Shown here one piece after another: positions 4,113 to 63,894 of a DNA stretch of 64,000 nt (positions are counted from its first letter, which is position 1; the number at the start of each line of letters is the position of its first letter). The position numbers and the translations under genes are program-made. The notes beneath the pieces were generated by a model. That model searched no databases and was not told the DNA's origin. It was given only the letters and a program-made list of their open reading frames with translations. The DNA comes from Octopus vulgaris (Eukaryota): assembly GCA_951406725.2 (NCBI GenBank), contig OX597819.1:35588001-35652000 (forward strand), read 5' to 3'.

Positions 4113-4704
4113 ATTTGGCATTAGAATTTTTCTTTTGCCCTTATATTGTAAATTATTTATAAATTTAACCTTTAAAGGTATTTTTTGATATGCTGGCCAT
4201 TGATGAAATTTTTTTCCCGAAAAAAATTTTATCCTACATTAGTTATAAATTGATTAGTGTTCACTTCCGGATTCTATCACTCTGTGAAAGTTTCTAGTTC
4301 GAATCACACGTGCTGACGATTTTCTATTTTGGATATATTTGGGGTACTTAGGTCTGCTCAGGACTTGGTGTTTGCTTTTTCCATGGGTATGAGTAAGTAT
4401 TTCACTTATATCTCGCGTATTTGTCACTGAAGAGGAGAAAATTCTTATGAATTAACTCCAAAATTGGTCCAATACGGTAATAACGAATTTTTTAGAAATT
4501 TCTATCGGTTTGTTTTGAGACGCATAAATTATAATGGTTAATTGACAATTTTTGTCTTTTTTTCGACATATTTGGCATTAGAATTTTTCTTTTGCCCTTA
4601 TATTGTAAATTCTTTATAAATTTAACCTTTAAAGGTATTTTTTGATATGCTGGCCATTGATGAAATTTTTTTCCCGAAAAAAATTTTATCCTACATTAGT
4701 TATA
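4113..4704 (+). mobile_element. Terminally redundant, hammerhead-bearing insert between (TA)n tracts (Penelope pLTR or retrozyme-like)
   Basis: 135-bp direct repeats at 4113-4247 and 4570-4704 (one mismatch seen), period 457; hammerhead-like motif at 4421-4480; TA-rich microsatellite on both sides. Confidence 0.7.
4421..4480 (+). ncRNA. Type I hammerhead ribozyme, degenerate (G12>A)
   Basis: TTGTCA-CTGAAGA-GGAG(aa AATTC ttat GAATT aa)CTCC-AAAA-TTGGtCCAA-TA-CGGTAA. Stems II and III pair; stem I pairs with wobbles and one mismatch. Confidence 0.65.
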
Positions 4705-5110
4705 TATATATATATATATATATATATATATATACATACACACACACACACACACACACATATATATATATACACATACATACATATGTACACATATACA
4801 TATACATGTATATATGTATATATATATATGTATACATATATGTGTGTATGTATATATATATATATATATATATATATATATATATATACACACACACATA
4901 TATATGTATGTATAGATAGATAGATTGATAAAGATACAGATACAGACACACACATGCACATATATGTTCTATAATGGTATATATATGTGTTTGTATGTAT
5001 ATGTGTGTGTGTGTGTGTGTGTGTGTATATATATATATATATATATATATATATATATATATACATACATACATACATACATACATACATACATACATAC
5101 ATACATACAT

Positions 5111-7350
5111 GATGGCTGCCCCCTCGTTATCGAGTATGGCCATTGCACGAAGCTTAACTATTACTGGTGCTGTGATCAAATGTGACTTTTTAGCCCAGCT
5201 AAAGATCTACAATGTCTTGTACAGAATTGGCAACTAAAACCTTTACGGGTAATAGCCGGCTGTAATTGTAACTGGGCTTCATGTACCTTTGCATGTCGTT
5301 TAAGTCCTCCTGCCAAATTACACTCTCTTCCACATGCCCGACAGATATGATTAGTATGGTGTGTAACACCACCACCAGTAGCCAGGTTGTCACTCATCTG
5401 TCTCACTATATGACTATGAAGATGACTCTTGAGTCCAGCTTTACTGAGGCAGGGTCTTGCACAGACACTGCATGTCAGCATCATAGGAAGACCCTTCCCA
5501 TCTGGAAGTGTAATAGCGATGCCCTTCCTGACATCCCTCCTTACTTTCTCATGTGCAACTCAAGATTTCTCAAAAGTGGCTGTCCCCTTGTGCACAATCC
5601 TTCTCCACCTGCTGCGACCAACAGCTATGCCTTCCCATGTGTCAGGAGAGATGCAAGCATCTCTTTAGGAAGCCTTCAGCGAGTCCTTATACCTCTTTTT
5701 TGGTTTATGTGGAGGTCGTTCTCCTTTAGCTAACTCTCCATGAAAAAGTTGTTTTGGCATCCTTCAATCCTTCATCCTGACCAGATGACCACTCCATCTG
5801 AGCCTTTGCTTTAACACAAGAGCTTCTATATTTTCACACCGAGAGCCTTCCAGTATTTCAAGATCACTGATGTGGTCCTTCCACTTAATGCCATAGATCC
5901 GTCTGAGACACATCTGATGGAAATGTTCCAGTTGTTGAAGATGGTATCGATATGTGATCCACATCTTGCAGACATAGAGAAGAGAAGGGAGCACACATGC
6001 CTTGTATACCTTTATCTTTGTCTTTCTGCATATGTCTCGCCGACTCCAGAGGCGCTTTTCTTGCCTTCTGAAAGCAACACTTGCTTTCCTAATTCTATAT
6101 GGAATTTCATCATCCAAATTGCTATATCTATTAATAGTGCTTCCCATGTAGACAAACTGATCAACTACATCAAGTCGTTTACCATACACATAGATATTTG
6201 GTACACTATACTGCTTACCAGGGGCAGGTTGATGCATGACAACAGTTTTCTTGAAATTGACTGTCAATCCTAAGGCAGTGCAAGCATCAGAGAATGCATT
6301 CAAAATGTGTTGCATATCAATCTCTGTGTGTGCTACTAGCTCACAATCATCTGCATACAAAAGATCTCTTATGATAGAGGTAAATACCTTTGCTTTTGCA
6401 GCAAAGTGCCTGATATTAAATGTAAAAGGTTCGATAATGGATGTAAATACCGTATCTGCAGTTTCTGAATGCAATACAGAACACCATCGCAAAATATATG
6501 GAAAATAGGGTCGGTACCAGAGTATCCCCCTGTTTCACTCCATTTTGTATTGAAATGGGCTCCGACATTTTCCCTCTAACCATTCATGTCTTCATGAAAA
6601 GACCTAACCAAAGCAAGGAACTTTTCAGGACACCCAAGTTTCTGGAGGACTTTCCACAATGCTTTTCTATTGACGGTATCAAAGGCTTTTGTCAGATCGA
6701 CAAAAACCTGATACAAATCCAGACTCTGTTCCACACACTTCTCCTGAAGCTGTCTAGCTGAAAAGATCATATCAGCAGTGCCACATCCCACACAAAAGCT
6801 AGATTGATTTTCTGGAAGAACACAATCTGCAACATATTTCAGCAGATGATCCAGAAGTATCCTGCATAAAACCATTCCTACGACAGACAGCAATGATACT
6901 CCCCTGTAATTACTACAATCATTCCTGTTGCCCTTTCCCTTATACAGGACCACCATTACTGTATCTCTCCAGTCCTCAGGTACAGATTCACTAGTCCATA
7001 TCTTACCAAACAAAGAGTGAAGTTTCTGCAGAAGTTTCTCACCACCATGCTGTAACAACTCCGCATGTATGCCATCCATACCAGGAGACTTCCCATTATT
7101 CAACCCTGAGACAGCCATTGCAACTTCTTCCAACTTTGGTGGTTCTACGAGTGCTGCCTTCACAGGCAATCCAGGGATGAGATTGAGAACATCCTCACTA
7201 ACTACAGACTGCTGATTCAAAAGTTCATCAAAGTGTTCTTGGCCACCTACGCAGAATTCCTTGTGAATCACGAAGAAGTTCTTTACCATTCCTGCTTCGA
7301 AGTGGTGTCATCAGGGAAGATGTCGGTCCATAAACTTCTCGCAAGAGACC
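5111..7350 (-). mobile_element. RTE-clade LINE, 5'-truncated and frameshifted; RT plus C-terminal C2H2 fingers
   Basis: ORF 6576-7289 (KSPGMDGI, CSNYRGVSLLS, FVDLTKAFDTV); ORF 5764-6492 (LLYADD, RLRWSGHLVRM); ORF 5176-5484 (three CxxC-x12-H fingers). 3' end ...GCAGCCATC followed by (ATGT)n. Confidence 0.95.
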
Positions 7351-61010: not shown

Positions 61011-61415
61011 TCACCATCATCATCATCATCGTTTAACATCCGTTTTCCATGCTAGCATGGGTTGGGCAATTTGACTGTGGACTGGTGAGCCAGATGACTG
61101 CACAGGCTCCAATCTCTTCTGGCAGAATTTCTACAGCTGGATGCCCTTCCTAATGGCAACCACTCTGAGGGCCAGTGAGGCAGTACTGGTAACGGCCACA
61201 CTCAAATGGTGTTTTTTACATGCCACTTGCACAGGAGCCAGTCGAGTGGCACTGGCAACGACCTCGCTTGAATGTTTTCTCACGTGCCACCGTATCATCA
61301 TCATCATCATCATTGTTTAGTGTCCATTTTCCACGCTAGCACGGGTTGGATGGTTCGACTGGGGTCTGGGAAGCCAGGGGCTGCACCAGGCTCCAGTCTG
61401 ATCTGGCAGTGTTTC
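61011..61415 (-). mobile_element. Two adjacent SINE family C copies
   Basis: (CAT)n tails at 61011 and 61294, each followed by family motifs. Confidence 0.82.
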
Positions 61416-63894
61416 TATATATATATATATATATTGTTGGTTGCCATCCTTTCTGTCTCGGGAGACAATGGAGTTGCGCACAAGTAGTCTAGTCCGGCTT
61501 TTATATTTCATGTCCTGATACATTTCCTGCTGTGGCTGTGTAGTCATATACATATATACATATATATATACATGTATGAATATATATATATATATGTATT
61601 TATATATGTATATATAAATATATATATATGTATATCTATATATATATATATATATATATATATATATATTTGTTTGTGTGTAGATATATAAGCATATATT
61701 TATAAACATTAATACATGTATACACACCCACCCACCCACCCACCAACACACACACACACGCATATGTATATATGTGTATACATGTTCATATACACAGACA
61801 TATATACACATGTATATATAGTCTTACATATATACACACATACACACATTTCATTAGGATAAGTTTGAGTACTCAGCTCATGAGTATTTGGCATTCTTAA
61901 TCAGCACTCTGTAACATACATCGCCATAGATAAGACAAAACATAAGCAGTTTGTGTAGTGTGTGTGTGTGTGTGTGTGTGTGTGTGTGTGTGTGTGTACA
62001 TGTGTATGTGCATGTGTGTGTGTGTGTGTGTGTGAGCATGTTTGTACATGTATTTGTGTATATGTGTATGCATGTCTGGGTATGTGCATGCAGATATGTT
62101 TATCTGAATGGGTTAAATCTATATCTATATATATGTAATATATGTGTTTGTGTGTGTGTGTGTGTGTGTGTGTGTGTGTGTGTGTGTGTGTGTGTGTGTG
62201 TAATATATTATATATACATAGACACACATATCTATATATATATACATATGTATATGTACACATATATATATACATATATCTATATACACATATATACATA
62301 TATGTATATATATCTATATCTATCTATCTATCTATCTATCTATCTATCTGTCTGTCTGTTTGTCTGTCTGTCTGTCTGTCTGTCTGTCTGTCTGTCTGTC
62401 TGTCTATCTATCTATCTATCTATCTATCTATCTATCTATCTATCTATCTATCTATCTATCTATCTATATATTTTATTTTATAGAAGGAGCTTCTACAGGA
62501 CTAGAACTGTTTCATTCAGATATATATAAGCATATCTTAAATAAAAATGGTCCGAAGACTGAAGAATACTTTGTAAACATCTCTTGGAGTACACCAAGAA
62601 TATAATCTTTTAAAGACAGAAGTTCAAATTGATAACTTGCTAGCTTTAGATTGATGAGTCTTGTCTTTGGAGTTTTGAGATTATGTCTGCGAATCAGTTG
62701 TAATGTAAAGTACTATGTCAGGACGATAAAGAAAAGGAAGATTCTTTGAGAGAGAGAGAGAGAGAGAGAGAGAGAGAGAGAGAGAGAGAGAGAGAGAGAG
62801 AGAGAGAGAGAGAGAGAGAGAGAGAGAGAGAGAGAGAGAGAGAAAGAGAGAGAGAGAGTGAGTGAGAGGGAGAGAGAGAGAGAGATAAAAAACAAAAAAC
62901 AAGCATAGTATTTTCATCGTCTGGTGGTTGGTATGGATTCTAGGTATACCAACTTGAAGTATCAAGTTTAAAAACAAAAACTGTTCGTGTGTGCTTGTAT
63001 GTGTGTGTGTGTGTGTGTGTATAAGTTTGAGTGAGTTAATGAAGGGAGAGGCAAGGAGGGGGAAGGAGTGGGAGGGAGTGGGAAGGAGGGGGAAGGAGGG
63101 GGAAGGAAGGGGCAGGAATGTGAAGGAGGGGAGGGAGTGGGAGGGGGAATGAGTAGGAGGGAGTGGGAGTGGTGAGAGAGGGTGGTAAGAGTGAGTGTGA
63201 TAGAAGGAGGAAAGTGGGGAAAAGAGAATGTGCATATATAAATATATTATCTGTCTGTCTATCTATCTATCTATCTATCTATCTATCTATCTATCTTCTT
63301 TCTCTTTCTTCCCCCCCTCTCTCTCTCTCTTGCTATATATATATATATACATACACACACACACCAGCACCCCACCCCATGTATATATTTATACACTTAG
63401 AGAGAGAGAGAGAAAGAGGAAGAGAATGTTTGAGTGCATGAGTATGTGTTTTTAAAAGTGAGATAGAGAAGGAGAGGGAAATGAGAAGAGAGTGATGTTG
63501 GAGGTTGGAGGGTATGGTTAGAGATGGTGTGCGTGTGTGTGTGTGTGTGTGTGTGTATGTGTGTGTGTGTGTATGTGCATGTGTTGTGTACACCTACACA
63601 TACAAGCATTTACCCTTCCCCCTCTCTCTGTTGCATGCATACAGATGCATACATACAAGCACATGTTTATACTCATGAATATAGACACACACACACACAC
63701 ACATGTTTACATATTAATTCTCAACCAAAAGAAGACCATTCTGCCAATTGGTTGACTGCAACTCTTTCCCAACACCACTACCAATGGCCAATGGACACTC
63801 CCTTTCCTTCCATGTACAAGGACTCCTGTCCTTTGACCTTGTTGCTGTTTTAGTATTGTGGCTACTTTATGAATATTTAGAATATATAACTGTT

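Follow-up and report, generated by a model that had tools for sequence, protein, structure and literature searches.

A 64,000-nucleotide (nt) stretch of Octopus vulgaris DNA (assembly GCA_951406725.2, contig OX597819.1, positions 35,588,001 to 35,652,000; hereafter the window) contains islands of complex sequence that are copies of at least nine unrelated repeat families carrying hammerhead-shaped motifs and having their 3′ ends at (TA)n, a description that largely holds. We consider it quite probable that two of the families are ends of Penelope-like elements (PLEs) and the rest non-coding derivatives moved by PLE proteins, with (TA)n targeting by a linker-bearing endonuclease (EN) and an internal start of reverse transcription. 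The class is already published (PMC4209133; PMC7229834; PMC8557442; bioRxiv 10.64898/2026.07.22.740005; these and most other papers are cited here for parts of their text), so that most of what we report adds to a catalogue: the octopus genome has hammerhead motifs by the tens of thousands. New here are a high-copy natural hammerhead with a G3-C8 core pair in an active PLE, PLE-A, which has a C3-G8 sister, and, as far as sequence can tell, genomic signs that most PLE-A copies stem from the capped start of uncut RNA. The assembly searched comprises 2.8 Gb in 227 contigs, numbered C1 onwards, with the window on C6; fetched loci carry the prefix L.

The argument turns on PLE-A, which occupies the start of the window (1..1648, plus strand) as the 5′-truncated 3′ part of a very young autonomous PLE that starts just upstream of the window and ends on (TA)n, here a (TA)27 tract at 1648..1701. 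Of 150 matches scored, no fewer than 34 show 100% identity across 168 amino acids (aa), and one locus, L217, carries a 1025-aa open frame with reverse transcriptase (RT) and EN, the RT motifs being read from the translation; 84 proteins are related to it at 25-66% identity. The nearest relative carries the label Octopus vulgaris, and 152 aa of it have a 100% match in the assembly. In the window, the C-terminal GIY-YIG endonuclease lies at 3..506 on the plus strand (Pfam PF01541, E 5.3e-5) and shows, again by reading the translation, a CX3CxxC linker of the Neptune/Nematis type and CCHH residues. PLE-A has the organization of an endonuclease-bearing PLE: one open reading frame (ORF) that carries RT and C-terminal GIY-YIG, and a pseudo-long terminal repeat (pLTR) and tail architecture in which the end overlaps the ORF start and inverted, 5′-truncated partners occur (L217, L344). 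The ORF start, or tail, is at 1557..1648 (plus strand), with the hammerhead 50 nt before it; insertions end near 1585 or near 1648, both within the ORF, and in L347 the sequence runs from the end point on into the ORF. Antisense to the pLTR and hammerhead lies a 125-aa frame (1242-1619, minus strand) that is open in L221 too and is probably a chance occurrence.

The PLE-A hammerhead, absent from the earlier description of the window made from its letters alone (below, the sequence-only reading), is a minimal type I motif at 1458..1507 on the plus strand with the G3-C8 core GUGAACA, a 7-bp stem I, a 5-bp stem II, a palindromic AAUAUU stem III and a predicted cut after UUU. Exact matches to its core pattern number 6,938 genome-wide, against none for the reversed pattern; position 8 is C in 98 of the first 100 and G in 2, and subfamilies with a different loop II keep the core and the stems. 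Copies with an unpaired G3/G8 core are found at L293, L294, L300 and L412. PLE-B, a sister with 55% identity to PLE-A over 815 aa, has its hammerhead in the same place, with C3-G8 and the same extra G but with A9C, and between the two elements stems I, II and III all show two-sided compensated changes. Its exact pattern matches number 3,035 (reversed control 0), and it too is very young, forming 4.59-kb head-to-tail tandems with a 1310-aa frame that has an Asn-rich insert (L342 on C19, L343 on C26). The engineered double mutant C3G/G8C is known to rescue cutting partly (PMC11167929; PMC8495972; PMC3884650); our search of the main texts of papers found no report of a natural G3-C8 hammerhead.

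The PLE-A short copies have a sharply defined 5′ end. Among the hammerhead copies at the first 40 core-pattern loci of C1, 45 of 46 have a pLTR match that extends at most 20 nt upstream of stem I. The copies begin at 1443 (plus strand), the A of YAGATG and the probable transcription start, and many have an untemplated G in front; among 12 with an intact AGATG start, G precedes it in 8. Genome-wide, copies of the older subfamilies start with G in 579 cases and with A in 92, while 390 continue into genomic pLTR; in the youngest subfamily the ratio is 93 G to 7 A among 100 listed of 202. The base before the extra G is variable (T8 A7 C4 G1 at 20 loci). Three head-to-head pairs among 100 listed (C1:193561420-193561478, C3:147570126-147570185, C7:83551557-83551615) carry the extra G on both arms, 1-2 nt apart. 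The start regions can presumably be read as initiator-like and YY1-like. Taken together, the ends suggest a capped start at 1443 and copying from an internal primer to the cap, and the short copies likely derive from capped, uncut, linear RNA primed internally rather than from circles. An extra G is the mark of capped full-length L1 copies (PMC11702581), and an internal promoter is known from the pLTR of Penelope (PMC2377424). Our literature search found no earlier report of cap-ended PLE copies. We lean, by a modest margin, towards a wider statement: that PLE-A is an active animal PLE with a natural G3-C8 hammerhead whose roughly 7,000 copies are mostly SINE-like (like short interspersed nuclear elements) retrocopies of 145-205 nt, running from cap to internal primer, inserted in (TA)n with no circle involved, and that such copying is a general source of dispersed single hammerheads and of many octopus 'unclassified SINEs'.

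What of the other islands? The sequence-only reading had listed nine sites and called at least four of them good motifs, which was overstated. Our type I descriptor (stem I of at least 4 pairs, stem II of at least 3, stem III palindromic or paired, with one base after A9 and U.U at 10.1/11.1 as options) passes one of the nine, 27227-27261 on the minus strand, most window copies being broken; 60 block-wise dinucleotide shuffles of the window gave a mean of 0.08 canonical hits (maximum 1). When any Watson-Crick 3-8 pair is allowed, the PLE-A motif (G3-C8, score 14) and one weak A3-U8 hit are added, but shuffled windows then give a mean of 0.62 and a maximum of 4, so that the PLE-A motif required family evidence. 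The Rfam matches listed for the window (150 of 252) included no hammerhead and only microsatellite-driven microRNA matches, and the hammerhead model RF00163 was unusable for counting over the genome, since the best 73 of about 263,000 candidates were scored and 6 exceeded the cut-off. Family searches, in which the assembly was queried with each island, 40 candidates were scored per search and 15-30 loci fetched, place eight of the nine sites in different repeat families, each with a family-wide type I hammerhead fold; families, folds, copy counts and junctions are direct observations. Family copies pass the descriptor in F1, F2, F4, F5, F7 and F8, while non-canonical cores are variants in PLE-A (G3-C8), F3 (U4C), F6 (AGUAA) and PLE-B (A9C). 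The islands are mutually dissimilar, as had been claimed: apart from self hits, all-against-all blastn of ten islands returned nothing but two matches of 14 nt and one of 22 nt in simple repeat. They are also multi-copy, with 98 to 3577 first-look candidates for eight islands. The ninth site, 32090, is rejected: it lacks a GAAA box, and that part of the query found no match in the assembly search. Nor did we count the core-like word CUGAUGA-AUA-GAAA at about 27430-27445 (minus strand), which has no stem I or II; the word is kept across the older repeat upstream of F2. All fetched loci together hold 45 hammerhead clusters, 15 of which recur in at least two loci, two of those being overlapping loci.

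F1 is the clearest non-coding family. Its window copy (4113..4700, plus strand) comprises 1.25 units of a 468-nt tandem element followed by (TA)n, with direct repeats of 131 nt (4113-4243 and 4570-4700) and a hammerhead at 4421..4480 (plus strand) that has G12 changed to A at 4460 and two stem I changes; its predicted cut lies between 4474 and 4475. The genome holds 3577 first-look candidates; same-strand units are spaced 457-475 nt apart in 30 of 31 cases, each unit carries a hammerhead, and no PLE profile hit falls between the repeats, as expected of a non-LTR retrozyme (LTR, long terminal repeat). As a family, F1 has a canonical hammerhead: an alignment of 33 copies, 31 of them distinct, has 97.6% of its cells paired and two-sided change in 7 of 19 pairs, a level reached by 0 of 500 shuffles on four of five measures, although relatedness by itself may outdo shuffles and these same sequences served to draw the structure. 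Covariation among copies is thus borne out, within that limit. F1 sequence is covered by contigs of three sequencing runs guessed to be RNA, which says nothing on level, ends or circles; the junction of a circle would be identical to that of the genomic tandem.

F2, an element of about 190 nt with fixed 5′ and 3′ ends (27125..27330, minus strand), sits at the TA tract beside F6 and contains the sole intact canonical motif among the listed sites (27227..27261, minus strand). It has 3372 first-look candidates and 6,211 exact motif matches (control 0), U4C occurring in 81 of the first 100, and of 20 copies that happened to lie in other loci, 18 start near a common point. We found no parent ORF; ten of the 905 loci with non-TA 3′ flanks had no continuation in common. 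Joined upstream is an older repeat (27331..27810, minus strand) with 75-79% identity between copies and no coding remnant found. F6 itself (26700..27105, plus strand; 423 first-look candidates) has a hammerhead-shaped motif at about 26879-26990 in which AGUAA replaces GAAA in 13 of 15 loci. F3 (29405..29660, minus strand; 2303 first-look candidates) comprises the 3′ part of a non-coding element, whose sequence extends beyond a TA tract of its own; the hammerhead at 29558-29615 (minus strand) has U.U at 10.1/11.1 and the CCGAUGA core seen in most of 30 loci, U4 being C as in most of the family, plus private stem changes. F4 (31900..31996, minus strand; 98 first-look candidates) is a 5′-truncated piece of an old family, about 80% identical between copies and canonical as a family, whose window hammerhead (31955) is cut inside the core and lacks C3 and the 5′ strand of stem I. 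The copies at 60563 and 62494 are likewise 5′-truncated, with the CUGA box missing wholly or partly: F7 (60400..60587, minus strand; 2164 first-look candidates) is the 3′ part of an AT-rich element with the 3′ half of a hammerhead (60565-60587), and F8 (62472..62522, minus strand; 486 first-look candidates) retains the 3′ half of the hammerhead of a young family, often found as palindromic insertions. Both families are canonical.

F5 is the second family tied to PLE coding sequence. The window holds a pLTR end from a Hydra-like PLE, broken off at (TA)n (9633..9775, minus strand), with a hammerhead at about 9633-9715 in which G10.1 is changed to C (site 9636; 1108 first-look candidates), and an inverted broken piece of the element (9799..10579, plus strand) comprising the CxCX5C linker, an endonuclease remnant at about 9799-10270 (plus strand) and 3′ untranslated region (UTR), with 73% identity to the region upstream of the hammerhead in L135. 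In long copies the upstream sequence is that of a broken endonuclease, which has a CxCX5C linker but lacks CCHH. In L129, L135 and the window piece we see CxCX5C, no CCHH, and CxxC plus CxH near the end of the EN, which together with (TA)n targets and a canonical hammerhead are traits of the Hydra clade. A PxGHN upstream of the F5 hammerhead, considered as the end of the endonuclease, proved to be UTR only, the real remnant lying farther upstream. With 3-506 and about 9799-10270, the two PLE endonuclease remnants of the sequence-only reading are confirmed.

To place the window in its genome, an unselected sample of 60 stretches of 10 kb (600 kb) was taken at round positions on contigs C1-C17. 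It holds 11 canonical C3-G8 motifs, against 0.35 ± 0.48 (maximum 1) in 20 local dinucleotide shuffles, a density above chance, as predicted, that extrapolates to about 51,000 motifs genome-wide (26,000-92,000). U3-A8 hits number 7 against 2.3 in shuffles, four coming from one family, and G3-C8 hits 0 against 0.65; PLE-A copies were 0 where about 1.5 were expected. A family with the U3-A8 core has 4 copies in 2 of the 60 stretches (L377:90-131, L380:8632-9440), and further U3-A8 motifs occur in L038 and L247. The window has 105 (TA)5+ tracts compared with about 80 per 64 kb of unselected DNA and is thus ordinary for TA content. A (TA)3+ tract lies within about 25 nt of the 3′ end at 23 of 28 F1, 27 of 29 F2, 23 of 24 F3, 29 of 30 PLE-A and 20 of 20 F7 loci, against a background of 8.1%; loci without a recognizable end were dropped from these counts (2, 1 and 6 of 30 for F1, F2 and F3). 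Among unselected canonical hits, (TA)5+ lies within 300 nt 3′ in 5 of 9 scorable cases, against 16.7% background (p 0.009), two of the 11 at stretch edges having been left out. The proposed link to (TA)n accordingly stands for the 3′ ends of most families but fails for one: 3 of the 11 hits belong to a frequent minimal hammerhead family away from (TA)n (L361:2229-2277, L368:3-48, L392:221-266).

How might such inserts arise? In our preferred reading, a GIY-YIG endonuclease with a linker, of the Neptune/Nematis or Hydra type, would nick (TA)n, and the reverse transcriptase would start inside the RNA, 100-230 nt downstream of the hammerhead. With read-through or tandem RNA as template, this would yield 5′-truncated ends, tandem units and inverted partners, as in F1, F5 and the long PLE-A copies. 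With an ordinary pLTR-started transcript as template, copying would run from the internal start to the cap and give a SINE-like insert of 145-205 nt whose 5′ end is fixed and bears an extra G and whose hammerhead is uncut, as in most PLE-A copies; F2 has the same look as these cap-ended inserts, and no parent was found for it. The TA kept at the end of each insert may later receive other elements, which would nest there; F2 adjoins the terminal TA of F6 both in the window and at two other loci, L231 and L234. The hammerheads, with their weak palindromic stems III, would be expected to need dimer formation or the help of a protein to cut, and would decay neutrally after insertion. Enzyme targeting, the start site and the origin of the G from a cap are what we infer from this pattern.

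Several observations weigh against this reading. A TA tract is part of the F3 and F7 elements themselves at the end point, so a share of the TA signal is internal, and 16 of 46 unselected PLE-A copies have no (TA)4 within 230 nt. Of 20 copies with target duplication, 2 have an extra G that fits the target as well, and the sequence at the fixed PLE-A 5′ end resembles a splice acceptor (ACUAAC...UUUCUYAG). Among 25 PLE-B copies, no more than 7 group around one 5′ point, at 56-68 nt upstream, and 14 exceed 100 nt. Unpairable G3/G8 occurs in 2 of the first 100 PLE-A matches and in 3 of 13 diverged copies that cover the core. F4 covariation is weak, with 36 of 500 shuffles reaching its count of two-sided-change pairs. 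The loci behind each family are the best-scoring 15-30 out of hundreds to thousands, and the F1 query of 1.25 units is a bias towards tandem copies. Finally, a PLE profile run on all fetched loci and upstream translations gave no parent ORF for F1-F4 and F6-F8, so that their dependence on PLEs is inferred from shape; the profile, built from the 84 PLE-A relatives, also missed the Hydra-like EN of F5 and is therefore not a sensitive test for coding remnants. The proposal of many dense families of PLE derivatives accordingly stands on coding sequence for PLE-A and F5 and on shape for the others.

The resemblance to a splice acceptor leads to a different account of the fixed PLE-A 5′ end, as a splice junction or a stop of the RT at RNA structure rather than a cap. 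The upstream sequence does resemble a branch point plus acceptor, pLTR introns are known, and the Drosophila Penelope intron ends at helix I (PMC4209133; PMC2377424). The copies have, however, a single extra base in common, the next one being variable; positions 1-1450 of the window hold no GAG|GT donor; a structural stop would not favor G over A sixfold; and the head-to-head pairs start with G on both arms. We regard this account as improbable. Much the same holds for the view that all islands are retrozymes moving via self-cut circular RNA and rolling-circle reverse transcription, which we think unlikely as a general explanation. It draws on F1, a non-coding 468-nt tandem with a canonical, covarying hammerhead like the circle-forming non-LTR retrozymes (PMC7229834), whose sequence appears in the three putative RNA runs, and for F1 alone the circular reading is plausible. 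A circle could not, however, give the PLE-A short copies their fixed 5′ end, extra G and uncut ribozyme; F2 has two fixed ends and no tandem unit, and like the PLE-A short copies occurs singly or in head-to-head pairs; PLE-A and F5 both carry coding sequence; and 8 of 9 frog retrozyme dimers stayed uncut in vitro (bioRxiv 10.64898/2026.07.22.740005). The circular-RNA part of the sequence-only reading lacks support, and in the best-resolved family, PLE-A, the 5′ ends point to a capped linear template.

A further possibility, which we hold to be real though not the favored one, is that the hammerheads are mostly passengers, their fold kept for protein binding or by descent, with G3-C8, U4C, A9C and A13U as steps of decay. 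Successful families do have non-canonical cores (U4C in F2 and F3, A9C in PLE-B, AGUAA in F6), inserted copies derive from uncut RNA, and insertion of the anole element in vitro was unaffected by ribozyme mutants (PMC11167929). Yet G3-C8 takes two changes, which together re-form a known tertiary pair and whose engineered version partly rescues cutting (PMC11167929; PMC8495972), core and stems are maintained across PLE-A subfamilies that differ in loop II, and U3-A8 families occur in this genome too. This view is compatible with our preferred reading and differs from it only over the role of the fold. That the motifs are chance matches in AT-rich sequence, by contrast, has next to no probability left. 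Relaxed descriptors give about 2 hits per shuffled window, 32090 being such a case, and shuffles produce hits with non-canonical 3-8 pairs (U3-A8, G3-C8, A3-U8) at 0.65-2.3 per 600 kb; against this stand the excess of canonical hits, thousands of exact copies with a reversed control of 0, and covariation. The chance reading is refuted for every listed site except 32090; the other eight stand as members of families with the fold, 26881 with an altered GAAA box.

The window has further features. At 5179-7307 (minus strand) there is a broken long interspersed nuclear element (LINE), with RT detected by Pfam, and after it a frame that encodes three C2H2 zinc fingers; we take the LINE to be RTE-like. 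Protease, RT and RNase H pieces of a broken Ty3/gypsy-like LTR element are at 22607-24595 (minus strand). A frame at 39375-39917 (plus strand) adjoins a long (TAA)n, and its end is presumably like the restriction-like endonuclease of R2/R4-type LINEs. A 43-bp tandem array of 18.7 copies occupies 21166-21957, and kindred tandem repeats of 24-147 bp at 8848-9048, 15586-15717, 48218-48379 and 55986-56372 have the word GGTGCTTTT...GCCACC in common and sit inside a common dispersed repeat.

What do these families mean beyond the catalogue? The G3-C8 family and its C3-G8 sister are a ready pair to test selection for cutting in PLE hammerheads, and standard descriptors overlook whole active hammerhead families. 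Internal initiation, so far seen in vitro for one lizard element, gains support at the genome level from the cap-ended short copies, and cap-ended copying offers a simple origin for dispersed single hammerheads without circular RNA. In the octopus repeat annotation, 31 PLE families are given as recently active and 893 SINE families as unclassified; its main text, as consulted, does not use the word 'ribozyme' (PMC13282606). The expectation that annotation would miss such elements thus holds for protein searches, while de novo repeat finders would presumably see them. No earlier report of octopus hammerheads was found in our literature search, and the consulted parts of PMC11014351 and PMC6765202 hold nothing opposing these readings.

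The octopus families can be set beside several described systems. Minimal hammerheads in PLE repeats, with many families per genome and a U3-A8 variant, were described by Cervera and de la Pena (2014; PMC4209133); the natural variation of hammerhead cores takes in U3-A8 and U.U at 10.1/11.1 as well (PMC3088659). Like those PLE pLTR hammerheads, ours are type I with a short palindromic stem III and an extra base between 9 and 10.1, and fall into many dissimilar families, mostly as single truncated copies and by the thousands per genome. That paper, which in the portion consulted names no cephalopods, gives U3-A8 as its variant rather than the G3-C8 seen here, and its densities of 2,000-9,000 per genome are below the 26,000-92,000 extrapolated here. 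Targeting of (TA)n by linker-bearing PLE clades was reported by Craig et al. (2021; PMC8557442), and our elements share with the Neptune/Nematis and Hydra clades the C-terminal GIY-YIG, the cysteine linker, (TA)n targets, inverted 5′-truncated partners, the tail and a hammerhead near the 3′ end. PLE-A is likened to Neptune/Nematis by its CX3CxxC linker and CCHH alone, and differs from the described clades in its long pLTR region (1.1 kb) and in a hammerhead that would evade a CUGANGA descriptor; the CxCX5C linker and the EN without CCHH of F5 match the Hydra description, compared by text alone. Tandem retrozymes, with circles shown in coral, mussel and axolotl, were described by Cervera and de la Pena (2020; PMC7229834), and non-LTR retrozymes have been proposed to be non-autonomous PLE derivatives (PMC7229834), an origin also argued by Li et al. 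(bioRxiv 10.64898/2026.07.22.740005). F1 resembles them in its non-coding tandem unit, low GC and canonical type I hammerhead, but has mostly 1-2 units, one fixed 3′ end at TA and no parent pLTR found; the other families are, unlike non-LTR retrozymes, not simple tandems. The closest parallel to PLE-A is the anole Poseidon element, which uses uncut RNA as substrate and has two internal sites for the start of reverse transcription (PMC11167929; Frangieh et al., 2024). Both have a hammerhead beside the ORF start, two 3′ end points inside the ORF, AT-rich targets and insertion from uncut RNA, which for PLE-A is the likely reading of its 5′ ends; cap-ended short copies as the main genomic product would set PLE-A apart, being absent from the consulted account of Poseidon, and the C3G/G8C exchange, an engineered rescue in Poseidon, is the natural state in PLE-A.

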